Shown here piece after piece: positions 1 through 58,172 of a stretch of 64,000 nt of DNA. Source of the stretch: Methanococcoides sp. (GTDB lineage Archaea; Halobacteriota; Methanosarcinia; Methanosarcinales; Methanosarcinaceae); contig JAIORJ010000046.1 in NCBI GenBank assembly GCA_021108185.1, positions 1-64,000 of the forward strand. The letters run 5' to 3'. A program made the position numbers and the translations under genes. Position 1 is the first letter of the stretch. Each line of letters begins with the position of its first letter. A model generated the notes under the pieces. The model did no database searches. It had not been told where the DNA came from and saw only the letters and a program-made list of their open reading frames with translations.

Positions 1-1
1 A

Positions 2-478
2 AAGATGCACTTGCGAAGCGAAGATTTTGAGCTCAATGAAATGATCGAAGATACGGCCAATATCCTTTCACCCCTTGCGAACAAAAAGAGAATAAACATA
101 TCCCACAGCATTGCTCATAATGTCAGCACCACAAATGCTGACAAGACCATGTTCAAACAGATAATGTATAATCTGGTAAGCAATGCCATAAAGTTCACAC
201 CTGAAGAGGGGAGCATTGACATCAACGCATGGTCAATGAACAAGAAACTTTATGTCAATGTCAAAGATACCGGAACCGGGATCTCAAAGGACCATATCGA
301 CGAAGTTTTCAAACCATTCATACAGGTCGGGAACTTTGCCACAAAAGAACAGGAAGGTACAGGTCTTGGCCTTGCTCTTGTGAAAAAGCTGGTCGAGTTG
401 CACGGTGGAGAAATATGGGTGGAAAGCGAGATGAACGAAGGCAGTACTTTCACCTTTACGATCCCTACCAGTAAATGA
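2..478 (+). CDS. sensor histidine kinase, C-terminal HATPase_c domain (5' end cut by window edge)
   Basis: ORF open to window start. Motifs 'DTGTGI' and 'GTGLGLALVKKLVELHGGEIWVES' match the G1/G2 boxes of histidine-kinase ATPase domains. Confidence 0.8.
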   Translation, partial: KMHLRSEDFELNEMIEDTANILSPLANKKRINISHSIAHNVSTTNADKTMFKQIMYNLVSNAIKFTPEEGSIDINAWSMNKKLYVNVKDTGTGISKDHIDEVFKPFIQVGNFATKEQEGTGLGLALVKKLVELHGGEIWVESEMNEGSTFTFTIPTSK

Positions 479-510
479 AAATAAAAAAGAAGAGAGCAGT
501 GGATAAGTGG

Positions 511-903
511 TCAGCCGTACAGTGACATGTCGTACTTAAGCGATGTGACATTAGCAGCACACACTGAACCGTTCTTCAGGAAATCCTCAATGTTCCTTTT
601 AAGTTCAGAAGGATTGGCAACACCTGCCATGCCACGTATCATTTTCCCAGCACACATGAATATAAAAGTGGGTGTTCCTTCCACACCATATCTTTCTGAG
701 ACCCATGGGTTAATTTCGGCATTGAGCTTGAAGAATTTACATGAATCTTTGTATGTTTCTGCAAACTCCCTGAAGTAAGGTTCTATCGCTTTGCAATGAG
801 AACATGTATTCAGATAGAACATTACCAGAACAGGTTTAGGCTCCTTTTCAACCATCTGTTCCCAATTACCGTCACCTACTTCCCCTACATAACTATTGTG
901 CAT
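511..903 (-). CDS. thioredoxin
   Basis: C-S-H-C active-site motif ('NTCSHCK') in a thioredoxin-like layout. Start chosen at the internal ATG at 903, preceded by the SD-like 'GAAGGGGG' with a 4-nt spacer. Confidence 0.75.
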   Translation of the reverse strand: MHNSYVGEVGDGNWEQMVEKEPKPVLVMFYLNTCSHCKAIEPYFREFAETYKDSCKFFKLNAEINPWVSERYGVEGTPTFIFMCAGKMIRGMAGVANPSELKRNIEDFLKNGSVCAANVTSLKYDMSLYG

Positions 904-966
904 GCTACCCCCTTCATTAATATCGTTTATGAAATAGATGATCACTTTTTTATTTGGTGAGGAACA

Positions 967-1395
967 TCACTTTTCGTCCCTATCAAATATTTCGACCGTA
1001 TTGTGATCATAATAAAGTTGCTTTTCAAAGATAGAAATATCCTTTGGTAGGATACCAGGACGTTCATCGGTCGTCATATAGAAATAACCTGCAATTTGGG
1101 TATAGTATTCCAAATAGCCTTTTATGACCTTGTTCAGAACTTCAAGTCTTCTTCCGAGTACCAAAATAAAAGGTAATTGCAAGAAAAAACAAATCATCAT
1201 TAAAAAACTATAGAGAGATAGAATGATCGCAACAGGTATACCATAGAATATCCTTACGAACAATTCCAAACGGGAAGCTTTTTTGTTCCATACAAAAAGC
1301 TCATTCATTCTTTTCTGATCCATTATTCTGACACCGAACCATTTTTTTAAATTATAAAATATATAAAGTGCGCTATATGTAAGAAACAAATGCAT
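967..1395 (-). CDS. hypothetical membrane protein
   Basis: 142-aa ORF with two or three hydrophobic helices; no recognisable motif. Confidence 0.4.
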   Translation of the reverse strand: MHLFLTYSALYIFYNLKKWFGVRIMDQKRMNELFVWNKKASRLELFVRIFYGIPVAIILSLYSFLMMICFFLQLPFILVLGRRLEVLNKVIKGYLEYYTQIAGYFYMTTDERPGILPKDISIFEKQLYYDHNTVEIFDRDEK

Positions 1396-1469
1396 AAGTT
1401 ATATGTTTTTTCAGTGAAAAATAAAAAAATAAGGGAAGATGTTCTGCAGATCATAACCTGTCTGCCCGT

Positions 1470-3269
1470 TCAATCCAGCTTTTCCCCACATTCTTCACAG
1501 AACTTTGCATCATCCTTTACTTCTTTTCCGCAAACTGGACATTTTCGGACTTCAGGTTCCGAACCTATATTAGAACGCTGGATAAGGCTATCAGTGATAT
1601 TGGTAGTGCTTATATTGTATTGTGCAGAACCCTCATCAACGAAAAGTTTGACATCGGTCCTCTTTTCGATCTCTTCCAGCATCTTATGATAGAAACCGGT
1701 AAGCGCGTCTTCTTTTTCAGCCCATGCCCTCAATATAAGGCGTGAACGGGTCTTGCCTACAACTTCAACATATGATGCATACTTTAAACCACTGACACCT
1801 TCAGCATAGAACCTTGCAACTCCCGTAAAAAGCCGAGGTGTTGATGTGATCTCTGGCTCTGTCATGTACATATTCATGTCCTTGAGGACCCGGGTAGCAA
1901 TATCGAACAGGTTCTCTGCAGGGATCTCAAGGTCTTTAGAATCCTCTTCTGCTGAAATGAGGGTGCTGACCACCGACCTCCAGGAAGGTTCATCGATCTG
2001 CCTGACCCGAAGTACCGGACAAACTATACTTACCATCTTGCCTTCAAGATCAACATGCTTACGCTTCTTCGTGTTATAGTCATAGTAGTCAATACCTGCA
2101 GAGATCTTACAGTCACCACATTCACCAGTCGGGCGGATCTCAAAGGTAACCGTCTTTCCTTCACCAGGTTCAAGCATAGACATCGTTTTCTCAGTCTCTT
2201 TCAACAGGAAAACATCAGGTACGAAAAGAGAGATCCTAATATCCCCTATCGGCTCAGAAGTGTTGTTCTCAACCTTTACCTTGTATTGGAGAAGAGCACC
2301 ACGGTAATTAAAAGCATATTTTACCACAATGGAACCGCTTTCCTTCAAAGGTGAAGATGGTGCTTTTCCTACACCGGCTCCAATGGGCTTGGATGGACCT
2401 TTTTCGGATTCAGTAACTGTTTCAGGAACAGGCTTAGGCTTGGATTTAGGCTTACTGGCAGTCTTTGAGGAACGATCACCCTTTGCTGATGGACTAGCAC
2501 CAAAACCGCCAGCTCCAGATCGTTCAGACTTCTTGTTCCGCCTTCGTGCCTTAATGATGCCCCTTAAGAATAACAACACAAAGATGAAGGAAAGAATAAG
2601 AATAACAACACCAGCACCATTGTCACTGTTGCCGGAATCATCAGTATATGTGGGATCTATCCTGTCAGTAGCAGTAGATGAAGACCTGCTAAAGTCAGAG
2701 GCAGAATAGTACTGGACCTCTCCTGATGGGACGTAGAAACTTGCCTCCATATCATCATATCCTGAAGATTCCAGGGTCACTGCATGATAACCAGGTTCCA
2801 GACCACTTAATTCTATCAGAGTGTACCCATCACTTGTGGCCTGATAATAGCTATCGAGATAGACATCATAACCATACGGGATGGAATAGAGCATTATGGC
2901 ACCCTGCGGGTAGTCTTTATAATATATATAAAGGTCGTCAATATTCATATAGTCAAAATATGATTCCGAATAGATGTCTACTATACCAAATTCCAGAGAA
3001 ATAAGGCCGTCGTCGTAATAGAAATAATCTCCCTCATAGTAGAAGGCATTGTGGACTTCATGGCCGTTCCATGTCATAGATATTTGAGCATAGTTATTGT
3101 ATGGATCAATATCGATTATATTGAGAACATATCCTTCTTCCAGCCAGAAGGAGTCCCCATCAGAGAAGGCAACCTCATAGTCCAGAGTTGATGAAGCACT
3201 GCCAGTAACGGATAATGTCAGGACTAAAAAGGATAATAACATCAGTATTTTTACGTGTTTTTCTATCAA
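1470..3269 (-). CDS. membrane protein with C-terminal zinc ribbon: signal peptide, Tyr/Asp-rich extracellular domain, one TM helix, low-complexity linker, cytoplasmic domain, C-terminal CPxCG...FCxxCG ribbon
   Basis: N-terminal 'MLLSFLVLTLSVTGSAS' signal peptide. TM helix 'GAGVVILILSFIFVLLFL' followed by RRRNKK. C-terminal 'CPVCGKEVKDDAKFCEECGEKLD'. Long ORF with coherent codon usage. Confidence 0.6.
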   Translation of the reverse strand: MIEKHVKILMLLSFLVLTLSVTGSASSTLDYEVAFSDGDSFWLEEGYVLNIIDIDPYNNYAQISMTWNGHEVHNAFYYEGDYFYYDDGLISLEFGIVDIYSESYFDYMNIDDLYIYYKDYPQGAIMLYSIPYGYDVYLDSYYQATSDGYTLIELSGLEPGYHAVTLESSGYDDMEASFYVPSGEVQYYSASDFSRSSSTATDRIDPTYTDDSGNSDNGAGVVILILSFIFVLLFLRGIIKARRRNKKSERSGAGGFGASPSAKGDRSSKTASKPKSKPKPVPETVTESEKGPSKPIGAGVGKAPSSPLKESGSIVVKYAFNYRGALLQYKVKVENNTSEPIGDIRISLFVPDVFLLKETEKTMSMLEPGEGKTVTFEIRPTGECGDCKISAGIDYYDYNTKKRKHVDLEGKMVSIVCPVLRVRQIDEPSWRSVVSTLISAEEDSKDLEIPAENLFDIATRVLKDMNMYMTEPEITSTPRLFTGVARFYAEGVSGLKYASYVEVVGKTRSRLILRAWAEKEDALTGFYHKMLEEIEKRTDVKLFVDEGSAQYNISTTNITDSLIQRSNIGSEPEVRKCPVCGKEVKDDAKFCEECGEKLD

Positions 3270-3410
3270 GATCGGACACCTGTGGAAACTATCATATTAT
3301 GTTAAGTTTGATCGCTATTAGTTCTTTCCGGGGCAAAGCTATACAGATAATACATATTGATTTTAAAGGAATATTTGTTTTAAAAGTGAATTTTTACCCC
3401 TACATTGAGT

Positions 3411-4697
3411 TCACTCAAGCTTTGTCCCGCACTGACCACAGAAATGTGCTTCTGCAGGGACTGTAGTACCACAACCAGGGCATTTCTTGACACCCGGAGT
3501 TCTGCGGGCCTGTGCAGCACCCATCATTTCAGCATCAAGTTCCTTCCTGCGATATGAATCATCGCGCTCACGGTCCTCAACATCCATCATGAAACGGACC
3601 TTGTCCTCTTTTGCAATGTTCTCAGCTTCTTTCATTTTGGCAAGGGCTTCAAGCTGCTCAGGAGACATATTCTGGAACTCCCTGCCCTGTGCAATGACCT
3701 TTGCAACATCTGAACCGCCTTTTTCCATAACATTACCCATATACTCCATGTCCCGGGAATGTTTGCGGTCGCTCATATCCTCATCAAGTTCAAGTTCAGC
3801 CCTTTTGGCTCCGGTTTTGGTCTGTTTCCAATCAGAAAAGGTCTCAATTGCCTGTTTAGCTTCGGCAGCATCGGTTTGGTTCTCGATCTGTGATATCCTT
3901 GACCTGTGGAGAGCATCCTTTTCCCCTTCTGTTCTGTAATGAGTTGCACTCACAGTTTCTTCTGCAAAGCCAGCCCTTGTGGATGCGACATTTATTCGGC
4001 TGTCACGGTCCAGATCACCCTCTTTTTCAAGAGCAGACATTTCTTTAAGCTCTTCGTTGACCTGGAATTCGCTGCGTTCCTTTCTTACAACAGCATAGTT
4101 GCCAAAGTCCCACTCGCAAGTATATTTTACAAGCTCGATCCCCCAAAGCAAAAGAGTGTCCTTAAGCTGCATTTCAAGCTCATTTTCCATCCTTAGCTGA
4201 AGATCACGGTTACCATAAAGGGATTCAATATCCTCCCCATGAACTTCCGGTTCAAGCACACGGGTTATTGTTTCACTTTCAAGGCGATCATAAATATCGA
4301 AGATAGAGAGATCTCTTTCCCCGTTCTTCTCCGGAACCGTATAGGAGAATATCATGTTGAAGAACTTTTTTGGATCGTTTATAGTGAACCTCAGGATACC
4401 CCCACACCCAACTTCCTGATCATCACGAGTCCATAGACCGGGAACCTCCCACCTCAGCTCCTTAAAGGAAGTGTCAATAAGAGCAACATCCACATCCTTA
4501 CGCAAGGTTCCTGGTTTTAGCAGGCCACCAACCATCATTTTTCCACTGTCTATGATGTCTTCAACTACACCATTCTTTATCATAACAGCTTTCTCATTAG
4601 GTGAGAGAGTAATAGATTTGCTGAAGAAACCTTTTACATTCTTCTTAGGGATAACACGTGCAATATCATCAAGTTCCTTCTTCCATTTGAACACCAT
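3411..4697 (-). CDS. SPFH/band-7-like protein with C-terminal zinc ribbon (resembles YdjI-type PspA partner)
   Basis: True start taken at the internal ATG at 4697, which follows a GGAGGT SD. N-terminal roughly 200 aa have an SPFH-like pattern. Central coiled-coil/charged region. C-terminal 'CPGCGTTVPAEAHFCGQCGTKLE' ribbon. Call rests on recollection of family features, not a database search. Confidence 0.5.
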   Translation of the reverse strand: MVFKWKKELDDIARVIPKKNVKGFFSKSITLSPNEKAVMIKNGVVEDIIDSGKMMVGGLLKPGTLRKDVDVALIDTSFKELRWEVPGLWTRDDQEVGCGGILRFTINDPKKFFNMIFSYTVPEKNGERDLSIFDIYDRLESETITRVLEPEVHGEDIESLYGNRDLQLRMENELEMQLKDTLLLWGIELVKYTCEWDFGNYAVVRKERSEFQVNEELKEMSALEKEGDLDRDSRINVASTRAGFAEETVSATHYRTEGEKDALHRSRISQIENQTDAAEAKQAIETFSDWKQTKTGAKRAELELDEDMSDRKHSRDMEYMGNVMEKGGSDVAKVIAQGREFQNMSPEQLEALAKMKEAENIAKEDKVRFMMDVEDRERDDSYRRKELDAEMMGAAQARRTPGVKKCPGCGTTVPAEAHFCGQCGTKLE

Positions 4698-4839
4698 AAT
4701 TCCAATACCTCCATCCTCAGGGAATATGCTATAGATTAACATTGAACAAATATTATATATAATGTTTTCCATTGTATACATAGGCATACATAATCGTTGA
4801 TCACTTTGATAGAACAGTAGAAGAGATATCAACAAAAAG

Positions 4840-4858
4840 AATAGATCTATTAATTAAA
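4840..4858 (+). promoter_or_regulatory. perfect palindromes AATAGATCTATT / TTAATTAA about 25-40 nt upstream of the RHH micro-ORF (candidate operator)
   Basis: AATAGATCTATT (4840-4851) is self-complementary and overlaps TTAATTAA. It sits in the AT-rich divergent promoter region with a TATATATA box at about 4755. Confidence 0.35.
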
Positions 4859-4881
4859 ATAACTAAAAAAGAGGAGATAAA

Positions 4882-5037
4882 ATGGGTCGCTCGTATCCTG
4901 TAAGTGCAAGGGTCTCAGAAGATAGTAAACAATATCTACAAGATCTTGTTGAAAAAGGAGTTGCTATAAACATGTCCGAAGCATTGAAAATATGTATAAG
5001 GTATGCCAAACAAAAGAAAATGGAGGAGGAGATATAA
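4882..5037 (+). CDS. small ribbon-helix-helix-like protein (51 aa), translationally coupled to the ESCRT-III-like gene
   Basis: Not in the ORF track (<60 aa). ATG at 4882 preceded by a GAGGAG SD (4871-4876). Sequence 'MGRSYPVSARVSEDSKQYLQDLVEKGVAINMSEALKICIRYA' fits the beta-strand-helix-helix pattern of CopG/Arc regulators. Stop TAA overlaps the next ATG (taATG at 5035-5039). Confidence 0.45.
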   Translation: MGRSYPVSARVSEDSKQYLQDLVEKGVAINMSEALKICIRYAKQKKMEEEI

Positions 5038-5606
5038 TGGGATTCGCTAATCCATTCAAAAAGGTATCACCTGATGAACTGAAAACAAAGCTATCGATGT
5101 CCGAACAGAGATTGACAGCACGTGAGAAAGAGCTTAACAAGAAGAGACAACAGGCACGTACACAAGCCAAGGATGCCCTTTCAGATGGGAATGACAGGGA
5201 TTTCAGGGTGGCATCTCGCAGATACTCGATGATAGAAGGCCAGGTCAACACCATTGGAAGTATGGTCGAAATGGCGCAGTCCATGACCGACGTAATGGAG
5301 ATGGAAAGTGGACTTAAAGAGGTTGTTGAGATCGGGGAAAACCTCGGAAAATGGCAAAAGCAACTTGGCTTTGATACAACAAAGCTCGAGGGAGCTATTA
5401 CCAATATCCGCACATCCATGGAGAAAGTGAATACTGCTACCAACCTCATGACATCCTCAATGGATGCAGCAATGAACGGTGGCACAGAGCTTAGTGATAT
5501 GCAGGACTCACTTCGATCAGAGCTATTAGCAGAACTTAGCACTGACATATCATCCAAAGATGAGCTATCAAAGAAGATCGATGAAGAGATGGCCGAGTCA
5601 GAGTGA
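5037..5606 (+). CDS. ESCRT-III / Snf7-family protein (CdvB/CHMP-like)
   Basis: Start at ATG 5037, preceded by GGAGGAGGA. 189 aa. Basic N-terminal helical hairpin, acidic C-terminal half, heptad pattern; aligns by eye with CHMP4/Snf7 (for example 'FRVASRRYSMIEGQVNTIGSMVEMAQSM' against Snf7 alpha2-alpha3). The antisense 218-aa ORF is low-complexity and rejected. Confidence 0.65.
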   Translation: MGFANPFKKVSPDELKTKLSMSEQRLTAREKELNKKRQQARTQAKDALSDGNDRDFRVASRRYSMIEGQVNTIGSMVEMAQSMTDVMEMESGLKEVVEIGENLGKWQKQLGFDTTKLEGAITNIRTSMEKVNTATNLMTSSMDAAMNGGTELSDMQDSLRSELLAELSTDISSKDELSKKIDEEMAESE

Positions 5607-5651
5607 TCTGGCAGGATCATACTGACCTACAGATACTGAGGGGGTGCAAAT

Positions 5652-6800
5652 CTGGGATCTGCAAGTTCACTGGCAGCACAGGCAAGAGGTTATGCAAAAG
5701 CTGCTAAGACATTGGAAGAAGAGAATGAAAAAGAGAGAGCAAGGGAACTATATCTAAGATCTGCAAAGCTCTACAACGAAGCTTCGAAACTCTCAACTGA
5801 CAAAACCGATAAGAATACACAGCGTGACCTTGCAGAACACCTTTTTGCAAAGGCACAGTCATTCAAAAGATCAGGCGTCCAGTATTCCGGCTCAGGCACG
5901 GGTACAAAGGAAGATACTGACGAATCATCATTATCAAAAGATGACCTTATAATGACAGAAACGCCCGATATAGGATTTTCGGACATTGGGGGCCTCGAGT
6001 CTGTTAAAGAGGATATCAGAAAGGCCATAATATACCCATTCACTCATAAGGAACTATACCAGATGTATGGCCAGAAAGCTGGCGAAGGAATACTCCTGCA
6101 CGGCCCCCCTGGTTGTGGAAAGACAATGATGGCAAAGGCCGCTGCAAAGGAATGTGGTGCAGATTTCATTAGTGTCAAAACAAGCAGCATTGTAAGCAAA
6201 TGGGTGGGTGCTTCTGAAAAGAACATAAAGAAGGTCTTTGACACTGCAAGGGAATGTGAGAAAGCCATCATCTTTTTTGACGAGATAGACTCCATAGGAG
6301 GCAGGCGAAGTGAAGCTGAAGACTACGCCAAAAGAGTGGTCAATGAACTGCTTGCCCAGATGGATGGAGTGGATACCGCCGATGATAACCTGCTGGTCCT
6401 TTCTGCGACCAACGAACCCTGGGCCATAGACCCGGCACTTCGCAGACCGGGACGCTTTAGTAAACTCATTTTCGTACCGGAACCGGACCTTCCTGCAAGA
6501 ATTGCCATCTTTAAGATCAACCTGAAGAAAAGACCGATCGATGATGATGTCAACGTAGAGAAACTGGCAGAGATGACCGGATCATATTCGGGAGCAGACA
6601 TTTCAGCCATTTGCAAGGAAGCCGCTGACATTCCGCTCGGAGAGGCAATTCGTGGTGCGGAACCCCGGAAAATAAAGATGGATGATTTCATCATAGTACT
6701 GGAGCAAAGGAAACCTTCGATCACCAGCTGGTATTCCGAAGCAAAACGTGAAATAAAGAAAAGTGGCGAAGAAGAAGTCTTTAGAGAGCTATTCCACTAA
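5652..6800 (+). CDS. Vps4-like AAA+ ATPase with N-terminal MIT domain (CdvC-like)
   Basis: Walker A 'GPPGCGKT', Walker B 'IIFFDEID', 'SSIVSKWVGASEK' (Vps4 'SDLVSKWLGESEK'), second region of homology, 'SGADI'. N-terminal three-helix MIT-like segment. Start ambiguous: the ORF track begins at TTG 5712, but the conserved helix 1 lies upstream with an in-frame CTG at 5652 placed 5 nt after a strong GAGGGGGTG SD. Confidence 0.7.
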   Translation: MGSASSLAAQARGYAKAAKTLEEENEKERARELYLRSAKLYNEASKLSTDKTDKNTQRDLAEHLFAKAQSFKRSGVQYSGSGTGTKEDTDESSLSKDDLIMTETPDIGFSDIGGLESVKEDIRKAIIYPFTHKELYQMYGQKAGEGILLHGPPGCGKTMMAKAAAKECGADFISVKTSSIVSKWVGASEKNIKKVFDTARECEKAIIFFDEIDSIGGRRSEAEDYAKRVVNELLAQMDGVDTADDNLLVLSATNEPWAIDPALRRPGRFSKLIFVPEPDLPARIAIFKINLKKRPIDDDVNVEKLAEMTGSYSGADISAICKEAADIPLGEAIRGAEPRKIKMDDFIIVLEQRKPSITSWYSEAKREIKKSGEEEVFRELFH

Positions 6801-6809
6801 TAACAGAGA

Positions 6810-8087
6810 GTGAACGAGATGGATCTGGAATCCCACCCCACAACATTGCAGGAAGAAAACAGGAAAACAGTGCATGAACTCCTGAAGAACACGCATTCAC
6901 GCATCGAAAGACTGATCCAGAAGACATATCAACAAAAGGATTCGGCCGCGACTTCACAACTTCGACAGCTTCGGACGAGGATAACAGGACTGATATCAGA
7001 AGCGGAAAAAAAAGAACTTGACTCCTTCGGAAGTCATACCGGCAACATTGATGATTTCTATGAGAACGAAGAAAGATTCGTAGAAACCCCTACGATGCTG
7101 CTTCAGGAAGTAGACAATGCCCTTGCTACCGATGAGAATGTCGATGTCTTTGCTATCAGTGACCTTGTGGACAAAATGGACATGGGATTTAGCCACAGGA
7201 TAGAGCTTACAAACAAGAACCTGAGCGAATACGAGAACAGGATCGGAAGTAAAAAGCAAGCTGAAAGAGAAGAAAAGGAAATAAGAGAGAAAGAGCAGAA
7301 AGAAGCTGAGGAAAAAGCCCCTGCAGAAGACAAAACTGAAATGTCTGAAACTTCCCCCTCCGAGATCAAAACCAGCTCAACTGATGATATTGAAGATGAA
7401 ACATCAGTTCCCTCTGACACCCAGGCCCATATTAAAAAAGACGAGCTTGATACTGAAACCCTCTCAAAACTTTACAGTTACATAAATATTCTGGAGGAAA
7501 AATTTGAGAAACAGCCTCCAGAGGTATCTTATGATGGGGAGTACATTGCAGACAAGCAATGGAAGGTCGAACTTTCAAAAAGAAGTGTGCGTGGCTCCAT
7601 AAAGGAAGGAAGGTTCAAAACTCCAATGCTTATCGTCGATAACTACTGGAAATCTGTAGACGACAAGAGAGATATCATCGAGATGATACAGGCAAAAGCA
7701 AGTACAATCGAACAAAACCAGTACATGAGCCTGTGTTTTATCAGCAGTTCATGGGATCAAAGCATAAAGGACTGGGTAAGGACATATTCACATCAGAGAC
7801 TGGGATTTTTCATATACGATCTATTGGAAGACGATCTTGTATACAATGAAAATGATGAAAATAACCGGAAATTTGCATTCTGGCATTCCACAAATGGAAC
7901 CCGGACTAAATTGGCACAGATCGTGGACCAACTCATTGAAGATGAAGAGTACTTTGACCTCAATGATGTTGTGGATCATTCCGGGCTTAACTTAAGAGGA
8001 GCTAAAAAATTCATAGATAGCCTCGTCAAGAAGAAAGCACTCATCGATGTTGGGCTGGACTCACCAAAATATACAAGATCAAAATAA
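6810..8087 (+). CDS. hypothetical acidic coiled-coil protein; last gene of the Snf7-Vps4 cluster
   Basis: 425 aa. N-terminal coiled-coil. Central Glu/Lys/Asp-rich low-complexity segment. C-terminal roughly 200-aa globular domain with possible D...(E/Q)xK and wHTH-like features (weak). Starts 10 nt after the Vps4-like stop. GTG at 6810 or ATG at 6819. Confidence 0.55.
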   Translation: MNEMDLESHPTTLQEENRKTVHELLKNTHSRIERLIQKTYQQKDSAATSQLRQLRTRITGLISEAEKKELDSFGSHTGNIDDFYENEERFVETPTMLLQEVDNALATDENVDVFAISDLVDKMDMGFSHRIELTNKNLSEYENRIGSKKQAEREEKEIREKEQKEAEEKAPAEDKTEMSETSPSEIKTSSTDDIEDETSVPSDTQAHIKKDELDTETLSKLYSYINILEEKFEKQPPEVSYDGEYIADKQWKVELSKRSVRGSIKEGRFKTPMLIVDNYWKSVDDKRDIIEMIQAKASTIEQNQYMSLCFISSSWDQSIKDWVRTYSHQRLGFFIYDLLEDDLVYNENDENNRKFAFWHSTNGTRTKLAQIVDQLIEDEEYFDLNDVVDHSGLNLRGAKKFIDSLVKKKALIDVGLDSPKYTRSK

Positions 8088-8143
8088 TACAAGGTAAATA
8101 AAATTAATTGAAAAAAAAGAATTAAAAAGGAGAGTGATGAATA

Positions 8144-8641: not shown

Positions 8642-10417
8642 TCATTTCGCCCAGAATGGGTTATCCCTTCTTTTTATATCCAAGAAGGAGTCAAGTGCTT
8701 CTAATTCATCCGCCGAAAGTGAATCGTAAAGTTCGTGCTCAAGTATCTTAGCATGCCTTTCAGGTATGTTCGCATAGAGAACATCGCCTTCGTTTATCTG
8801 TCTGCCCACTGTAGGGCCATCGATAGACATCGCAACCTCCATGCCGATAGTAGCAACACTTACGTTCTCGCCCCGTGATTGCAAGCCTTTTACAATTCCC
8901 ACTACAGTACCATCGCCTGTCGTAACATCGACCTTCGTCTTGATGGTACCACCTATTACACGTACACCTACAACAGCAGGTTTGCTCTGTCTGAACACAC
9001 AGTCAGGCATAATAGTGAACATAGCGGGTTTGACAATTGTCTCGGAAACGGCCTTTTCGGATATAGCCCGCTGTTCCTTTACCCAATCCCTATAGTCATC
9101 TATCAAACGGTAGATGACATCGTTCATGAACACCTTGACGCCAGTGGATTGTATTTTTTCTTTGGCATCAGGAAGGATATTGACATTAAACCCTACAATA
9201 ACAGAATGGAACGGATCTTCGATAGCGAAAGCTTCCATAATGTCCCTGTTGGAAATATCACCCACATCTGCTTTGCGAATAGGGATATCCTCTTTTTTAA
9301 GTTCATTCACAAGAGCTTCAAGAGAGCCAATTGTATCGGCTTTGATAGTAATACCACTCTGATCGGTATCGATCTGGACATCTTCGACCTCATTACGCAC
9401 CTCTTCAACAACAGCATCCAGTGTTTCAGCAGTAGCTACCCTAACTGAACCTCCGGACAATGCACCATCGAGATGAGGAGCTGAGATCTTAACACCAACT
9501 GCAGCAGTAACCTTACTGACCTGCTTGAACTTATCTTCAACATTGATCTCTGAAAGAGCACGTGGTTTTAGGATAGCACGAACTTTTGTCTGTATAGGTT
9601 CACCCAAACATCCAACAACTATCGTATCACCTTTTTTCAGCACTCCATCATACAGGATAAGATCAAGGGTGGTACCAAGTCCACGCTCTTCTTTGACCTC
9701 CAGAACAGTACCCACACCGGGCCCTTCTGCATTATAATGAAGATTCGATTCAAGGAATCTCTGCGCCAGTCCCAACAGAACCATCAATAGATCAGGAATA
9801 CCTTCACCTGTGATCGCACTGATAGGAATAACACCGATATTATGCTGGAAATCGTTTACACGGTCATATCGATCAGAACTGAAACCATTGTTATACAGTT
9901 CACCCACGACCTCATAGAACTTGGTGTCAAGGCTTCCCCTTACGTGTTCGCTCTGCTTATTGTAAGACGTCATGAAAGGAGCACCTTTTTGAGGGTTCCA
10001 ACCATGGATCTTGTCGATCTTGTTCGCCACAACAACGAACGGGGTCTTATGCTGTTGCAAAATATTCAGGCTCTCGATCGTCTGTGGTTTAAAACCTTCA
10101 TTGATATCAACGATAACAACGGCAAGGTCTGCAAGAGCACCGCCACGACTCCTTAAAGTAGTGAACGCATGATGTCCAGGCGTATCAATGAAAAGAAGTC
10201 CAGGAACCATGAACTTGTCAAGTAGACCTGGATTCCCACATTTTTCCACAATAGCACTTATAGGAACTTCAGTTGCACCAATGTGCTGGGTGATAGCTCC
10301 AGCTTCTCCGGATACAACTGCACTTCCACGTATCATGTCAAGCAGTGAGGTCTTGCCGTGATCCACATGCCCCATAACACAAACGATAGGAGTTCGTAAG
10401 TTATCTTTTACAACCAT
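8642..10417 (-). CDS. infB: translation initiation factor aIF5B (IF-2 family GTPase)
   Basis: G1 'GHVDHGKTSLLD', 'DTPGH', 'NKID'. 591 aa. Conserved position after ndk. Confidence 0.95.
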   Translation of the reverse strand: MVVKDNLRTPIVCVMGHVDHGKTSLLDMIRGSAVVSGEAGAITQHIGATEVPISAIVEKCGNPGLLDKFMVPGLLFIDTPGHHAFTTLRSRGGALADLAVVIVDINEGFKPQTIESLNILQQHKTPFVVVANKIDKIHGWNPQKGAPFMTSYNKQSEHVRGSLDTKFYEVVGELYNNGFSSDRYDRVNDFQHNIGVIPISAITGEGIPDLLMVLLGLAQRFLESNLHYNAEGPGVGTVLEVKEERGLGTTLDLILYDGVLKKGDTIVVGCLGEPIQTKVRAILKPRALSEINVEDKFKQVSKVTAAVGVKISAPHLDGALSGGSVRVATAETLDAVVEEVRNEVEDVQIDTDQSGITIKADTIGSLEALVNELKKEDIPIRKADVGDISNRDIMEAFAIEDPFHSVIVGFNVNILPDAKEKIQSTGVKVFMNDVIYRLIDDYRDWVKEQRAISEKAVSETIVKPAMFTIMPDCVFRQSKPAVVGVRVIGGTIKTKVDVTTGDGTVVGIVKGLQSRGENVSVATIGMEVAMSIDGPTVGRQINEGDVLYANIPERHAKILEHELYDSLSADELEALDSFLDIKRRDNPFWAK

Positions 10418-10572
10418 GACACAACTCTCTCTGAAATCCTGTTGAATTCATTAATATTAAAAAAAACATTCAGGAGCGTTAGTACATAACATACTAACAA
10501 TGAAAGAGGACCGAATTATCGGCCTCTTATCCCTGAATGTTATTCGATCTTCAGATGTCTGATCCTTTCGAA

Positions 10573-11022
10573 TCACTCATACAACCATTCATCATCTGCT
10601 CGTGGATAGCCGGAGATCTCAGACTCTTCAAAGTGAAGAGCTATCTCACGCTCTGCTGATTCCGGAGCATCGGATGCATGGACAACATTTCTACCCATAT
10701 CGACTGCAAGATCGCCGCGGATAGTTCCAGGCAATGCATCGACAGGATTTGTTGCACCATTGATCGCACGCATGATCTTGATCGCGTTATTGCCTTCAAT
10801 GACCATCGAAACGGATGGTCCTGAAGTTACAAAGGATATGAGTGAACCGAAGAAAGGCCTCTCGGAGTGCTCTTTGTAGTGCTCCTTTGCAGCCGCTTCG
10901 GTCATCACATTCATCCTTAATGCTGCGATCTTAAGACCTTTTGTCTCGATTCTTGAGATGATCTCTCCAACAAGACAGCGCTGAACGCCATCTGGTTTGA
11001 CCATTACATAGGTTCGTTCCAT
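10573..11022 (-). CDS. ndk: nucleoside diphosphate kinase
   Basis: '[15 protein letters not shown]', 'NVVHASD' active-site His region. Start at ATG 11022 after a GGTGA SD. Confidence 0.95.
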
Positions 11023-11036
11023 CAGATTCACCAACA

Positions 11037-11225
11037 TTAGGCTTTCTTCAGGTAGATCCTACCCTGTTCTGTCCAGACAGTACGCCTTGGAAGTCTTCCA
11101 AGATCGAAGTTGCCCTTACACTTAGAAGAACAGAAATAATATGTGGATCCGTCCCTCTTTGCAAAAAGGAGACCTGTACCTGGCTCAAGCAACTCTCCGC
11201 AAAATGAACATTTTCTCTGTTCCAT
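11037..11225 (-). CDS. rpl24e: 50S ribosomal protein L24e
   Basis: 'CSFCG...YYFCSSKC' zinc-ribbon L24e signature. Start at ATG 11225 after an AGGTGA SD (the ORF track extends to GTG 11234). Confidence 0.9.
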
Positions 11226-11230
11226 TATCA

Positions 11231-11461
<231 letters not shown>

Positions 11462-11468
11462 TCAATGA

Positions 11469-11822
11469 TTATTTGAGTGCAGCGACTTTCTGTGCAACGT
11501 CTTCTACAATTTCGCTGCCCTTTCCTGCATCAGTGATTACAACAGCTGCACAGCCTACACCAATTCCACATGCTGCACCAAGTTCTTTCTGCTGTTTTAC
11601 AAAAATGTATGGTGTGTTCTTTTCTTCGCAAAGAGCTGGAATGTGAGCAACGATCTCGGATGGCTCAATATCAGCTGCGATTACTGCAAGCTTTGTGATG
11701 CCTCTTTCGATAGCTTTTGTTGCTTCGTTTGTACCTTTCTTGATCTTTCCAGTGTCTCTTGCGAGTTCGATTGCTTCAAGCGCTTTATCTGCTAATTCGT
11801 CAGGAACTTCAAATTTAACCAT
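11469..11822 (-). CDS. rpl7ae: 50S ribosomal protein L7Ae (K-turn binding)
   Basis: '[16 protein letters not shown]...AVIAADIEP' L7Ae/L30e signature. Confidence 0.93.
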
Positions 11823-34762: not shown

Positions 34763-34958
34763 TGGGGCTGGAGAGATTCGAACTCTCGATCGACGGGTCT
34801 CTCCGAACAACTGCCTTACGACAGTCAATTCTTAAGAACACACATCAGTGCTCCAACGGCTCTTCACCGACCCACTCCGTCGAGTAGATCTCAGTAGACC
34901 CGTTGTTCATCATTTATCCGCTGGAGCCCGTCGCCATTCCAGGCTAGGCCACAGCCCC
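34763..34958 (-). tRNA. tRNA-Trp(CCA) with 122-nt intron (34799-34920) at canonical position 37/38
   Basis: Hand-folded: acceptor GGGGCTG/CAGCCCC, anticodon stem ACGGG/CCCGT, loop CTCCAG, anticodon CCA, T-arm GAGAG-TTCGAAT-CTCTC, discriminator A; CCA not encoded. Confidence 0.8.
34845..34913 (-). ncRNA. box C/D guide RNA embedded in the tRNA-Trp intron (predicted to guide 2'-O-methylation of C34 and C39)
   Basis: Box C ATGATGA (34907-34913), D' CTGA (34891-34894), C'-like TGAAGA, D CTGA (34845-34848). D-guide GCCGTTGGAGCA pairs with the anticodon region (5th nt opposite C34). D'-guide ACAACGGGTCTA pairs with AGACCCGT of the 3' exon (5th nt opposite position 39). Confidence 0.7.
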
Positions 34959-37632: not shown

Positions 37633-38298
37633 TCATTTATAGTTATTTCCAATCGGCTGTATCTTATCAGAAGAATCGACTTCCACCTGGGAGGTATCAA
37701 CATCAAAGACAACCATACCACTATGAAGGTCATTCGCTTCTTCGGCTGAGAGCTTTCTTGATACAACTTTATCAGAGATTATAACACTGTTACCAAGAGG
37801 ATCTTCTATAATGACGGTCAGAGGAAAATCCCCAGCTATAGCTTTTTCAAGCTGATCCTGCAGTTCCAGTCCACGTGCATACGCATCGGGCTCATCTTTA
37901 ACCCAGCCAGTAGCGGTCACGACAACCGACTGTACCCTTTGAAGAATACCCTCAATATTGGTAACATATGAATCCGAAACAGAACCTGGCTCAACATCGA
38001 TCCCCAGTTCAGGGATCCTTATGGTGCCTGAGGTCGAACGTATGACCCTTGCATTGAGGTCCTCAAGTCCTTCTACCTTGAGCTCAAAACGCATAGGATC
38101 CTTCTGAGCAAGTATCATTGTATCCGTGAACCTGAACCCACAGTTACAACAGGAAGTGGAAATGTACATAACTTCCCCGAAATAGGGAATTTCATCTCCC
38201 TGCCATTTAATGATAAGGTCTTCCTGGCAGAGAGGACAGGAAGTTCTGGTCTCAAATGATCTCGGAGACTCTGACCCGGAACTATCCTCTGCGCTCAA
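37633..38298 (-). CDS. ZPR1-type zinc-finger protein
   Basis: 'CPLCQEDL...CCNCGF' C4 zinc finger followed by an A-domain-like beta-rich region; 221 aa. Confidence 0.55.
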   Translation of the reverse strand: MSAEDSSGSESPRSFETRTSCPLCQEDLIIKWQGDEIPYFGEVMYISTSCCNCGFRFTDTMILAQKDPMRFELKVEGLEDLNARVIRSTSGTIRIPELGIDVEPGSVSDSYVTNIEGILQRVQSVVVTATGWVKDEPDAYARGLELQDQLEKAIAGDFPLTVIIEDPLGNSVIISDKVVSRKLSAEEANDLHSGMVVFDVDTSQVEVDSSDKIQPIGNNYK

Positions 38299-38684
38299 TA
38301 CCTTCCACCAACTATCTTGGATCTGTCGATTCTGACACCTGTCGGAGTGACAAGTACCTGATCATCCTTAATACCTGCAATGTCCCCATGAACATCGATA
38401 ACAACATCTTTCAGATCCTTAAGTGCCCTGTCAAGCATGAGTTTATCAGCCTTGATATTAGAGATATCGATCATAAGGATATTGCCATTATAGATCTCTT
38501 TCTTCAAGTCAGGAAGTTCGTTAAGGTTCGTAAGTTCTGCCACCCTGATGTAGGTCTCTGCAGGTTCATCTGCCATTTCCTGTTCAAATTTACCAAGGTC
38601 GAGCTCAGTATATTCATCAGCATCTGTCGCACCCTTTACTCCACTTCCAAATATTTTATCCATGAAATTTGCCATAGTCAGCAC
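38295..38684 (-). CDS. sepF: cell-division protein SepF homolog (FtsZ membrane anchor)
   Basis: 'FMDKIFG' N-terminal amphipathic helix plus C-terminal SepF/DUF552-like core ('ILMIDISNI...DVVIDVHGDIAG'). Confidence 0.6.
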   Translation of the reverse strand: MLTMANFMDKIFGSGVKGATDADEYTELDLGKFEQEMADEPAETYIRVAELTNLNELPDLKKEIYNGNILMIDISNIKADKLMLDRALKDLKDVVIDVHGDIAGIKDDQVLVTPTGVRIDRSKIVGGRY

Positions 38685-57899: not shown

Positions 57900-57977
57900 G
57901 CTCCGGTAGTGTAGTCCGGCCAATCATTCCAGCCTTTCGAGCTGAAAACTCGGGTTCGAATCCCGGCCGGAGCACCA
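57900..57977 (+). tRNA. tRNA-Glu(TTC), CCA encoded
   Basis: Hand-folded: acceptor GCTCCGG/CCGGAGC, D-arm GTGTAGTCCGGCCAATCA typical of archaeal tRNA-Glu, anticodon loop CTTTCGA, T-arm TCGGG-TTCGAAT-CCCGG. Confidence 0.85.
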
Positions 57978-58094: not shown

Positions 58095-58172
58095 GCTCCG
58101 GTAGTGTAGTCCGGCCAATCATTCCAGCCTTTCGAGCTGAAAACTCGGGTTCGAATCCCGGCCGGAGCACCA
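58095..58172 (+). tRNA. tRNA-Glu(TTC), second tandem copy
   Basis: Identical mature sequence to 57900-57977. About 195-nt tandem duplication including the leader hairpin GCTCGCTTCAATGCGAGC and the oligo-T trailer. Confidence 0.85.

Follow-up and report, generated by a model that had tools for sequence, protein, structure and literature searches.

A six-gene unit in the 64,000-nucleotide stretch of Methanococcoides DNA analyzed here (the window) is very likely a chromosomal copy of the archaeal ESCRT system of the 'Meth_adaptin' type, carried by a Methanococcoides that is a close relative of M. alaskense. Four closely packed plus-strand genes (4882-8087) encode a 51-aa ribbon-helix-helix (RHH) protein, a 189-aa ESCRT-III protein, a MIT-AAA ATPase and a 425-aa coiled-coil/winged-helix protein, and a divergent minus-strand pair, encoding an SPFH/zinc-ribbon protein (3411-4697) and an adaptin-appendage-like/zinc-ribbon membrane protein (1470-3269), completes the unit. 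The initial annotation had proposed a four-gene plus-strand operon, and all four ORFs are indeed present on that strand, but its boundaries were drawn too tightly, as the two divergent genes are also part of the system. It had further regarded a Snf7-Vps4 pair in such archaea as at best sparsely documented, which does not hold, since this type of locus, including the Methanococcoides methylutens orthologue with identical synteny, was described by Makarova et al. (2024), whose Table S2 gives the same six-gene layout in M. methylutens MM1 as part of the Meth_adaptin clade (mBio 15:e00335-24, PMC10936438). The main finding is already known, from computational work, and the ESCRT function of the system is a predicted one. 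New relative to that study are a short, conserved gene for a regulator and, upstream of it, a likely operator; neither the RHH gene nor the conserved promoter/dyad is among the contents of its tables and text (PMC10936438).

Conservation and Synteny of the Locus

The window agrees with M. methylutens MM1 in the content, order and orientation of the six genes and in their neighbors (S6e, aIF5B/InfB, Ndk and L24e), the common synteny running L24e-Ndk-InfB-S6e, CC-wHTH, Vps4, ESCRT-III, SPFH, adaptin, and the protein lengths agree with those of MM1 (189, about 384, about 431, 428 and 603 aa). The Meth_adaptin components are arCOG01307 (Vps4), arCOG00454 (ESCRT-III), arCOG15283 (SPFH) and arCOG15284 (adaptin-like; PMC10936438). 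Methanosalsum zhilinae has ProX and GOLD-adaptin genes, and Methanolobus two extra membrane adaptin/Ig-like genes, that the window lacks. The clade is called 'Methanobacteriales' in the text of Makarova et al. (2024), whereas its members are Methanosarcinales (PMC10936438).

The module of RHH, ESCRT-III and divergent SPFH genes is kept in 37 related loci, most of which also have the ATPase and coiled-coil/winged-helix genes, and the arrangement is therefore not due to chance. The order ESCRT-III then ATPase is constant wherever the two genes adjoin; in most Methanoperedenaceae-type loci the ATPase gene is kilobases distant from ESCRT-III or was not detected in the flank examined. The locus is chromosomal and occupies a conserved position beside ribosomal genes, and no relatives of it were found in viral contigs.

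The ESCRT-III Protein

The 189-aa protein (5037-5606, plus strand; arCOG00454) is an ESCRT-III protein of the Snf7/CdvB family and falls in the ESCRT-III/Snf7 branch rather than that of PspA, as judged from a family profile compared with the PDB, from Foldseek and from its AF2 model. The longest ORF opens at ATG 4992 (204 aa), and the start was placed at 5037 because homologues are 185-191 aa long. Matches of the family profile to ESCRT-III structures span 1e-9 to 1e-4 and include Asgard ESCRT-IIIB (2.3e-9), yeast Snf7 (2.6e-8), CHMP1B and CdvB, which bears out the Snf7/CHMP-like identity first proposed; PspA/Vipp1 is absent from these PDB matches, and in Foldseek the best nine PDB matches to the model are all ESCRT-III, with PspA at rank 12. 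A generic coiled coil without any Snf7 or PspA match, which the earlier reading had set against its own proposal, describes the protein only in part: alone it matches Pfam Snf7 over its full length at E=0.02 (15 bits, under the cut-off of 27.3) and has no match to PF04012, while 13 of 50 family members match Snf7 individually.

The N-terminal motif MGxxxPFKK is conserved, the N-terminal third is basic (pI 10) and the C-terminal third acidic (pI 4.2), and the protein consists of four long helices (12-49, 53-110, 115-146 and 152-188 in the AF2 model, pLDDT 75) with a conserved C-terminal amphipathic helix; a canonical MIM motif was sought in it and none was identified. Asgard and eukaryotic ESCRT-III proteins, the best profile and Foldseek matches of the family (Heimdall ESCRT-IIIB, yeast Snf7, CHMP1B), have in common with it an N-terminal hydrophobic/basic motif, a charge dipole and a MIT-AAA partner, whereas the window has just one ESCRT-III paralogue and neither ESCRT-I/II orthologues nor a ubiquitin link.

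The RHH Gene and the Intergenic Element

The first gene of the operon (4882-5037, plus strand) encodes a 51-aa RHH protein of the CopG/Arc/MetJ type, and its stop overlaps the ESCRT-III start codon, as had been noted from the sequence (TAATG at 5035-5039); its final codons (ATG GAG GAG GAG ATA) also serve as the Shine-Dalgarno of the ESCRT-III gene. The micro-ORF is a real gene under purifying selection: by tblastn it is present in all 37 Methanosarcinaceae/Methanoperedenaceae (Methanosarcinales) loci, always abutting ESCRT-III, with 71-100% amino acid identity, and differences at the three codon positions number 164/87/494, with a dN/dS of about 0.05-0.12. Its RHH-like identity is supported at the family level, as Pfam RHH_1 matches 15 of 23 orthologues (best 4.4e-5); in NCBIfam the protein matches AbmR (3.9e-5) and, weakly, RelB/DinJ (0.027), and some databases annotate it as Arc/MetJ or CopG RHH.

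Alignment of 36 intergenic regions revealed a highly conserved block between the divergent genes (4748-4789), in which a palindromic TATA box, ATTATATATAAT (4752-4763), is followed by TGTTTTCCATTGTATAC (4763-4779). A 12-bp dyad, ATTGTATACATA, lies at 4771-4782 in the window, where inverted repeat I1 was detected, and is a perfect palindrome, ATTGTATACAAT, in 14 of the 36 loci. In 28 loci the exact 17-mer is found a single time each, with no further copy within +/-10 kb; the window holds one exact copy of it, the expected number of matches with as many as 3 mismatches being 0.46. The core was found in every locus except L018, and in these 36 loci the dyad center keeps a fixed distance of 15 nt from the TATA end, or 16 nt in the case of four loci from Methanomethylovorans. 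We infer that the block acts as promoter and operator for the RHH/ESCRT-III operon, and it may serve the divergent SPFH gene as well. In Methanomethylovorans the operator sequence differs while the RHH beta-strand is unchanged, and hence the link between the RHH protein and the dyad is only putative.

SPFH, Adaptin-Like and Winged-Helix Partners

The divergent SPFH (Band 7) protein (3411-4697, minus strand; 428 aa, an arCOG15283 orthologue) carries a coiled-coil region and a C-terminal zinc ribbon (Pfam Band_7 E=3.7e-5, 24.3 bits against a cut-off of 23.6; Zn_Ribbon_1 4.5e-6). A start at TTG 4835 was rejected in favor of ATG 4697, the length and start then agreeing with the 428-aa WP_048205008. 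Next to it is the gene for the 599-aa single-pass membrane protein (1470-3269, minus strand), an arCOG15284 orthologue positioned where WP_048205009 (arCOG15284) lies in M. methylutens MM1 and retained, with 23-92% identity, by most of the related loci. A signal-like N-terminus is followed by an extracellular PEGA domain (7.9e-7), a transmembrane helix predicted by hydropathy (about 214-242) with RRRNKK after it, a cytoplasmic Ig/adaptin-appendage-like region and a C-terminal zinc ribbon (Zn_Ribbon_1 1e-7). The adaptin-like assignment is a modest one, suggested by an Alpha_adaptinC2 match under the Pfam cut-off (E=0.0059; CARDB/NPCBM_assoc are weak) and by published modeling, arCOG15284 being described as 'adaptin appendage domain, ESCRT system component' (PMC10936438).

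The last plus-strand gene (6810-8087; GTG start, alternative ATG at 6819) begins 9 nt after the ATPase gene, not 10 as first given. Its product has the 425 residues and coiled coil of the original description, but alignment of 11 orthologues adds a conserved globular domain and a C-terminal winged helix to the acidic coiled-coil protein envisaged there, the order being helical/coiled-coil (about 1-150), variable acidic linker (about 151-215), globular (about 216-365) and winged helix (about 366-425). Pfam EAP30/Vps36 matches three of the 11 orthologues (best 6.4e-4), several others match assorted families of the wHTH type, with one or two orthologues per family, and there are weak PDB wHTH matches; the protein is probably an ESCRT-II-like adaptor.

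These partners bear on the possibility, to which we assign somewhat less than an even chance, that the locus is a PspA-like, stress-inducible module for membrane repair or osmotic stress and not a constitutive vesicle or cargo sorter, with the SPFH protein recruiting ESCRT-III to damaged membrane and the RHH protein acting as an off-switch until stress. The SPFH gene is the most constant partner, lying divergently beside RHH/ESCRT-III in 37 of 37 Methanosarcinales loci, and bacterial PspA/Vipp1 systems (SPFH partner YdjI, PspF-type feedback) likewise place an ESCRT-III-superfamily gene beside an SPFH gene and a small transcription factor, PspA being localized by YdjI according to the literature; a similar stress-response logic is plausible for the window. 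ProX, an osmoprotectant-binding protein, is encoded in some loci, ATPase orthologues of Methanoperedens are fused to a C-terminal diadenylate cyclase domain, c-di-AMP being an osmoregulatory second messenger, and a dedicated repressor-type regulator with an operator suggests inducible expression. A 2025 review argues that ESCRT-III coexisting with FtsZ acts in repair or vesiculation. However, the adaptin-appendage-like domains, and the GOLD domains of relatives, point to cargo handling, the ESCRT-III protein is in the Snf7 and not the PspA branch, and the bacterial systems lack the Vps4-like ATPase that the window has.

The MIT-AAA ATPase

The ATPase (5652-6800, plus strand; arCOG01307) has a Vps4-like architecture and follows the preceding stop by 45 nt, as originally stated, although it is 382 and not 383 aa long. 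Its first codon is CTG, a non-canonical start, and no canonical start precedes TTG 5712 (362 aa); at the exact position of the CTG, TTG or GTG stands in relatives, and the 20 codons 5' of 5712 differ from theirs solely by synonymous changes. The near-cognate CTG 5652 is the probable start. Neither this CTG start nor the Methanoperedens cyclase fusion is in Makarova et al. (2024).

The MIT-domain AAA ATPase with Vps4-like motifs that had been predicted is recovered in the form of a MIT-like three-helix bundle (4-70), a disordered linker (74-97) and a single AAA cassette with Walker A (GPPGCGKT), Walker B (IIFFDEID), pore loop (KWVG) and SRH (RRPGR), then an all-helical lid and a C-terminal helix (356-371; AF2 pLDDT 82; Pfam AAA 1.2e-43, AAA_lid_3 5e-11). 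Pfam MIT matches 17 of 25 homologues, and the N-terminal profile finds calpain-7 MIT at 1.2e-3 and VPS4 MIT domains at 0.17-0.9; the window's own ATPase has no Pfam match to MIT or Vps4_C and, in contrast to Asgard and eukaryotic Vps4, lacks the Vps4 beta-domain.

The initial annotation had opposed clustering with PAN/Cdc48 and a missing MIT fold to its proposal, and the outcome is mixed, with a core closer to Cdc48-D2/PAN than to crenarchaeal CdvC (271 bits for CDC48, 244 for PAN, 225 for CdvC; NCBIfam) and a MIT domain nevertheless present. That the enzyme is a single-domain quality-control unfoldase of the Cdc48/VAT type, the 189-aa protein a generic coiled coil and the ESCRT resemblance superficial is improbable. 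The large AAA subdomain has its highest HMM and structural similarity to D2 of VAT, the archaeal p97, with which it shares the pore-loop motif SKWVGxSEK, the best 50 Foldseek matches are all p97/Cdc48, and public annotations read 'transitional endoplasmic reticulum ATPase'. Against this, the ATPase has one AAA cassette and, where Cdc48 carries its double-psi barrel N-domain, a MIT domain, its lid and C-terminal region, compared domain by domain, score higher with crenarchaeal Vps4/CdvC (34 and 30 bits) than with p97-D2 alone (25), its gene is coupled to ESCRT-III in constant order where adjacent, the 189-aa family matches ESCRT-III structures, and in a published Cdc48-rooted phylogeny the orthologue stays in the Vps4 family.

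Proposed Mechanism and Physiological Role

A Cdv-type cell division machine is very improbable. The ESCRT-III protein and ATPase are homologous to CdvB and CdvC of crenarchaeal CdvABC, where the ESCRT-III gene is likewise directly 5' of the ATPase gene, but no CdvA-like match was found among the locus proteins, no wH is fused to ESCRT-III, NCBIfam CdvC spans the full ATPase at 244 bits against an equivalog cut-off of 650, the literature gives division to FtsZ in such archaea, and the SepF homolog reported in the same window (38295-38684, minus strand) is confirmed by Pfam SepF (E=1.2e-12). The least probable reading, an anti-phage defense or toxin-antitoxin module with an RHH antitoxin and an IetA/TRIP13-like ATPase, draws on ATPase matches to PADLOC IetA (2e-42) and TRIP13 and on the weak RelB/DinJ similarity, but the PADLOC matches are confined to the generic AAA core, no IetS or toxin partner is at the locus, the other five proteins have no defense matches, the RHH gene is coupled always to ESCRT-III and never to a toxin, and the conserved chromosomal site beside ribosomal genes and the absence of the locus from viral contigs speak against it.

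Alongside the observed gene identities, conservation, synteny and selection on the RHH ORF, we infer the following interactions among the proteins and with DNA, and the physiological role. In a Meth_adaptin-type ESCRT system, the RHH protein would be the operon's own transcription regulator, probably binding the conserved dyad just 3' of the TATA box and making expression conditional. ESCRT-III would attach to the inner membrane face by its basic N-terminus and polymerize, possibly positioned by the SPFH/zinc-ribbon protein as a membrane microdomain scaffold, and the PEGA/adaptin-like/zinc-ribbon and coiled-coil/winged-helix proteins may be cargo or nucleation adaptors (ESCRT-0/I/II-like). The hexameric ATPase would grip the acidic C-terminal helix of ESCRT-III via its MIT domain and, using the KWVG pore loop, thread and disassemble ESCRT-III subunits, so that filaments turn over and the membrane is deformed or cut. 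Membrane remodeling or repair outside cell division is the most likely role: as the organism has SepF, and hence FtsZ-based division, the system is most likely used for vesicle budding/protein sorting or for repairing membranes, and not for cytokinesis.

Gene Content and Correspondence to a Known System

The four closely spaced plus-strand ORFs of the initial annotation are present at 4882-8087, and its coordinates and spacings were correct within one base. The first (4882-5037, 51 aa) encodes an RHH protein and has a TAA stop overlapping with the start ATG of the second (TAATG), which encodes a 189-aa ESCRT-III protein (5037-5606). The third, an AAA ATPase, lies in a frame that is open over 5640-6800, where codon 5652 is CTG, and the fourth (6810-8087) encodes a 425-aa coiled-coil/winged-helix protein with a GTG start and an alternative ATG at 6819. 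The boundary drawn around these four genes was too narrow, however, as the system is larger and also includes two genes located divergently upstream. These encode a 428-aa SPFH/coiled-coil/zinc-ribbon protein (3411-4697), divergent from the RHH operon, and a 599-aa PEGA/adaptin-like protein (1470-3269) in which a signal-like N-terminus, a PEGA domain and a zinc ribbon are combined with one TM helix.

The premise that a pairing of ESCRT-III and Vps4 is barely documented in such organisms does not hold, as the Meth_adaptin system was catalogued in 2024 (Makarova et al., 2024; PMC10936438) and a 2025 review finds ESCRT-III with Vps4 in every major archaeal lineage but DPANN. The components of Meth_adaptin are Vps4, ESCRT-III, an SPFH/coiled-coil/zinc-ribbon protein and adaptin-appendage-like proteins, one of which has a zinc ribbon, together with ProX and a GOLD fusion in some loci (PMC10936438). 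In Table S2 of that survey the locus of Methanococcoides methylutens MM1 reads L24e, Ndk, InfB, S6e, a "coiled-coil fused to wHTH" (1296 nt), Vps4 (arCOG01307, 1155 nt), ESCRT-III (arCOG00454, 570 nt), a 335-nt gap, SPFH (arCOG15283, 1287 nt) and adaptin (arCOG15284, 1812 nt) (PMC10936438). The window carries the order characteristic of Meth_adaptin, in which ESCRT-III directly precedes the Vps4-like gene and the coiled-coil/wHTH gene comes next, and because its genes, their sizes, their orientations and their neighbors all match those of MM1, it is an orthologue of the catalogued locus. ProX is absent from window positions 1-8100 and likewise from the M. methylutens locus as listed, which makes it a variable component of the system. 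The text of the survey assigns Meth_adaptin to "Methanobacteriales," although the listed members (Methanosalsum, Methanococcoides, Methanohalophilus and Methanolobus) belong to the Methanosarcinales (Makarova et al., 2024). Hence the feature is real and was correctly identified, yet computational work had already described it, including an orthologue from the same genus.

In an Rfam scan, the locus matched no RNA family. Elsewhere in the window, the scan located a minus-strand tRNA gene (34763-34958) with a long intron that holds a C/D-box sRNA (sR3, 57.6 bits, 34843-34917), an eL15 ribosomal-protein leader on the same strand (RF03144, 33468-33518), and two plus-strand tRNA genes 195 nt apart (57900-57974 and 58095-58169) with identical scores, which are probably duplicates.

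The ESCRT-III Protein

As a single sequence, the 189-aa protein matches Pfam Snf7 (PF03357) with E = 0.02 and 15 bits, which is under the cut-off of 27.3, and the match runs end to end (residues 17-178 to profile positions 4-164 of 171). The same profile is matched individually by 13 of 50 family members, with a best E-value of 1.2e-15. Single-sequence and narrow-family profiles were uninformative against the PDB and a broader alignment of the 50 family members was needed; the matches to MakA and enoyl-CoA hydratase obtained in the single-sequence and narrow-family (A1) searches were judged spurious. With the broader profile, the proposed Snf7/ESCRT-III identity is borne out by matches to solved ESCRT-III structures, namely Heimdallarchaeota ESCRT-IIIB (2.3e-9, residues 6-174 against 6-178), yeast Snf7 (2.6e-8), a Loki Vps20/32/60-like protein (1.7e-7), CHMP1B (3e-5), CdvB (1.3e-4) and CHMP3/Vps24 (∼2e-3). 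PspA/Vipp1 is not found among the best 60 of the 102 PDB matches of this profile (E ≤ 10), PF04012 (PspA/IM30) does not match the window protein at E ≤ 1, and PspA ranks 12th at best in the Foldseek list of the model (probability 0.63).

The protein has the long α1-α2 hairpin followed by shorter helices that is found in ESCRT-III proteins of ∼190-220 aa, as well as the expected charge split, with a pI of 9.99 for residues 1-60 and 4.20 for residues 121-189. Where a C-terminal MIT-interacting motif (MIM1 or MIM2) would be expected, two amphipathic segments are conserved, QDSLRSELLAEL and L-x-x-K-I-x-x-E-h, neither of which fits the canonical MIM1 spacing.

An Apparently Mosaic ATPase With a Truncated Public Annotation

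In the window ATPase there is an in-frame stop four codons upstream of 5652 and no canonical start ahead of MIT helix 1, the first canonical start being the TTG at 5712. At the position homologous to CTG 5652, related genomes have a TTG or GTG start. The N-terminal helix is translated, probably from the near-cognate CTG 5652, as the 20 codons of 5652-5712 are conserved and differ from those of relatives only synonymously. The NCBI annotation of a 98%-identical orthologue gives a protein of 362 aa that begins at the downstream TTG, and its MIT domain is therefore truncated. The corrected start is useful in that public annotation cuts the MIT domain short in this clade.

The initial annotation called this protein a MIT-domain AAA ATPase with Vps4-like motifs, and the domain assignment stands. 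There is a single AAA cassette of the classic clade (Pfam, 1.2e-43) with AAA_lid_3 (5e-11), and its intact Walker A, Walker B, pore-loop and SRH motifs, respectively GPPGCGKT, FFDEID, KWVG and RRPGR, are invariant across the family. Pfam MIT is matched by 17 of 25 close homologues (best 1.2e-5), while the window protein itself does not fall below 0.1. A profile of the N-terminal region matches the MIT domain of calpain-7 at 1.2e-3 and the MIT regions of VPS4A/B, Sulfolobus Vps4 and CdvC at 0.17-1.8, such that MIT domains make up 12 of its 17 matches. The AF2 model (pLDDT 82) consists of a three-helix bundle at residues 4-70 (pLDDT 82-90), a disordered linker (74-97) and an AAA fold, in which the lid is all-helical with no β insertion and a C-terminal helix spans residues 356-371.

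The Vps4 affinity is more divided, as the architecture, with its MIT domain, is that of Vps4 while the AAA core is by score nearer to Cdc48-D2. Residues 98-382 score 271 bits with the NCBIfam model of CDC48, 244 with PAN and 225 with CdvC, and p97/Cdc48 structures fill the entire top 50 of a Foldseek search. By contrast, for the lid and C-terminal 87 residues crenarchaeal single-domain Vps4/CdvC give 34 and 30 bits against 25 for p97-D2 alone. The alignment with the CdvC model begins at residue 5 and covers the entire protein, at 244 bits and far short of the equivalog cut-off of 650. The pore-loop motif SKWxGxSEK was dropped as a diagnostic of Vps4 since a PDB search showed that D2 of archaeal VAT carries it too. 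Vps4_C (PF09336) is not found among the best 25 of 42 families (E ≤ 1) matched by the window protein or the best 25 of 28 (E ≤ 0.1) in a scan of its homologues, and the combination of a C-terminal helix with a Vta1-binding β-domain is not seen. This β-domain is a eukaryotic elaboration, so its absence argues against a "eukaryote-type Vps4" and not against an archaeal Vps4-like ATPase. From its core alone the protein could be read as a generic Cdc48 unfoldase, but this is unlikely, as it is contradicted by the MIT domain and by the coupling to ESCRT-III. By these comparisons the ATPase is a mosaic, in which the core resembles Cdc48-D2 and the MIT domain and lid resemble those of Vps4. This agrees with the published view that Vps4 evolved out of the Cdc48 C-terminal domain, and with a published tree, rooted with Cdc48, that retains the orthologue in Vps4 (arCOG01307).

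The Coiled-Coil/Winged-Helix, SPFH and Adaptin-Like Proteins

Eleven orthologues of the 425-aa protein, which is the fastest-evolving component (24-92% identity), align into an N-terminal helical region, a variable acidic linker, a globular region and a C-terminal segment. The globular domain (∼216-365) is conserved and no family was recognized in it. The C-terminal segment matches wHTH families, and EAP30/Vps36 (ESCRT-II) in three of the 11 (best 6.4e-4), and a profile of the protein gave only marginal wHTH matches in the PDB. In two Methanoperedens loci (L034 and L036), the homologue is extended at its N-terminus by a stretch that includes a hydrophobic TM-like helix, and this adaptor may therefore be membrane-anchored there.

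The SPFH protein scores 24.3 bits with Band_7, above the Pfam cut-off of 23.6, and 4.5e-6 with Zn_Ribbon_1, as is characteristic of the SPFH protein of Meth_adaptin (arCOG15283), and it matches WP_048205008 in position and length. In each of the 37 Methanosarcinales loci, its gene lies in divergent orientation to RHH/ESCRT-III. The 599-aa protein matches Alpha_adaptinC2 with an E-value of 0.0059, which does not reach the cut-off, and from its synteny and length we infer that it is orthologous to arCOG15284. It is the single adaptin-like gene of the window locus, and there is no GOLD paralogue. The 599-aa and 428-aa proteins have near-identical zinc-ribbon ends, KCPxCGxxVxxxAxFCxxCGxKL(D/E) (1470-1545 and 3411-3486).

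A Conserved RHH Gene and a Candidate Operator

The RHH identity proposed for the micro-ORF is sustained by its orthologues, 15 of 23 of which match Pfam RHH_1 (best 4.4e-5) and 8 of 23 RelB, while the window copy has no Pfam match; NCBIfam gives RelB/DinJ at 0.027 and AbmR at 3.9e-5. The sequence, RSYPVSARVS-EDSKQYLQDLVEKG-VAINMSE-ALKICIRYA, has the β-strand, helix, G-x-x-x-S-E and helix that are expected of an RHH protein. A histone-fold (NF-YB) reading, derived from weak profile matches (E 0.02-0.3), was discounted as spurious in view of the RHH_1 and RelB matches. By tblastn the gene is present in 37 of 37 Methanosarcinales loci, in each case abutting the ESCRT-III start, with 71-100% identity, a level of conservation equal to that of ESCRT-III. 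Substitutions relative to the window number 164, 87 and 494 at codon positions 1, 2 and 3, with dN/dS values of 0.05-0.12 wherever dS is unsaturated. A word-indexed search of 5.8 billion proteins gave just 37 clusters of relatives, all of this lineage and some annotated as Arc/MetJ or CopG. The gene was not found at Thermoplasmata-type loci, nor does it appear in the tables or text of the 2024 survey (PMC10936438). Its MEEEI tail (codons ATG GAG GAG GAG ATA TAA, 5020-5039) doubles as the ESCRT-III Shine-Dalgarno sequence GGAGGAGGAG and overlaps the start, and hence the strong conservation of MEEE(I/L) may reflect dual use for coding and ribosome recruitment.

The intergenic alignment revealed a nearly invariant block, TTATATATA-N2-GTTTTCY-ATTGTATAC (4753-4779), which is kept between genera that share only 50-80% protein identity. 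It is part of a promoter-like region (4748-4789) that combines a palindromic TATA box with TGTTTTCCATTGTATAC and includes a 12-bp dyad whose spacing from the TATA box is fixed. This region is confined to the one intergenic region in related loci. The exact 17-mer is found in 28 loci, with one copy in each, and the window likewise has a single copy. In 14 of 36 loci the dyad, ATTGTATACAAT, is perfectly palindromic and, across the 36 loci where the core was found, its center is 15 nt from the TATA end (16 nt in four Methanomethylovorans). We infer that the block is a promoter with a candidate RHH operator overlapping the start site; a caveat to the link with RHH is that in Methanomethylovorans the downstream sequence differs while the RHH β-strand is the same. 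It is possible that the divergent SPFH gene uses the palindromic TATA box as well. In one Methanosarcinales MAG (L018, 6241-7333), ∼1 kb lies between the conserved promoter block, located beside SPFH, and the RHH gene, and this interval may be an insertion that separates the operon from its promoter.

Distribution and Variant Loci

The ESCRT-III gene of the window is 100% identical to that of a Methanococcoides MAG and 98% identical to that of M. alaskense. Its homologues are confined to the Methanosarcinaceae (Methanococcoides, Methanolobus, Methanohalophilus, Methanosalsum and Methanomethylovorans), the Methanoperedenaceae and a few Thermoplasmata-like MAGs. This is a small family, with 84 clusters at 50% identity in an exhaustive profile search of 1.84 billion representatives, and a scan of viral contigs found no relatives. 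Methanolobus loci (L009, 11790-14860, and others) have two extra genes between those of the ATPase and the coiled-coil/winged-helix protein, both missing in the window, which encode a 580-aa multi-TM protein with an adaptin-like region and a zinc ribbon at its end and a 421-aa membrane protein that is Ig-like by eye only. A distant version of the system is found in a Thermoplasmata MAG (L038, 8677-15354), where zinc-ribbon/adaptin-like, ESCRT-III and Vps4-like ATPase genes on one strand are accompanied by convergent coiled-coil/winged-helix-like and SPFH genes and by a gene for a 1989-aa repeat-rich membrane protein, with no RHH gene.

In Methanoperedens, the ATPase orthologues (11 clusters; P0194-P0200 and P0204-P0207) are MIT-AAA-DAC proteins of ∼560 aa with a C-terminal diadenylate cyclase (PF02457), exemplified by positions 10001-11683 of locus L044 (contig JAPMTX010000139.1). 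In this rearranged locus the fusion gene is ∼12 kb from ESCRT-III. The fusion suggests a link to c-di-AMP signaling, and it has no mention in the 2024 ESCRT survey.

Discussion

The window adds no new kind of system. What it does add to the known one, the RHH gene and its putative operator, the start-codon correction and, from related loci, the DAC fusion, provides useful leads, none of which is contained in the published account (Makarova et al., 2024; PMC10936438). No experimental work on the locus in Methanosarcinales was found in the literature.

Judged from comparative sequence evidence, the best-supported reading is that the locus encodes a non-division ESCRT machine that would remodel membranes. 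A role in Cdv-type cell division is unlikely, as the SepF reported in the window is indeed present, no CdvA-like protein is found among those of the locus, and the ATPase is far under the CdvC equivalog cut-off (244 vs. 650 bits). According to the 2025 review, where FtsZ is present ESCRT-III probably serves repair or vesiculation. That the locus is a defense or toxin-antitoxin module is also unlikely, a PADLOC scan having given generic AAA similarity only.

For the remodeling machine itself, it has been suggested that Meth_adaptin buds vesicles and sorts cargo, based on its adaptin and GOLD domains. The alternative is that it may repair or adapt membranes under stress, for which the coupling to SPFH, ProX, the DAC fusion and the dedicated repressor-type regulator speak. 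A more specific proposal, which we put forward tentatively and consider rather unlikely, is that the RHH protein and the dyad make the ESCRT module stress-inducible and autoregulated in a Psp-like manner and tied to c-di-AMP and osmolytes, for membrane repair or volume control rather than cargo sorting. By analogy with Psp, the RHH protein would keep the divergent SPFH and RHH/ESCRT-III/Vps4 promoters repressed, and membrane or osmotic stress would lift this repression; the MIT-AAA-DAC fusions of Methanoperedens, along with ProX in some loci, would connect the system to c-di-AMP and osmolyte signaling.

The locus offers practical handles in cultivable methanogens (Methanococcoides and Methanolobus). 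The dedicated and conserved regulator with its putative operator provides a route to finding the inducing conditions, and the MIT-AAA-DAC fusion suggests a testable connection to c-di-AMP and osmotic signaling. It has been proposed that, among living systems, Meth_adaptin best approximates the ESCRT machinery of the last archaeal common ancestor. If the Psp-like circuit were true, this ESCRT type, with its proposed resemblance to the ancestral one, would serve in membrane repair or volume control.
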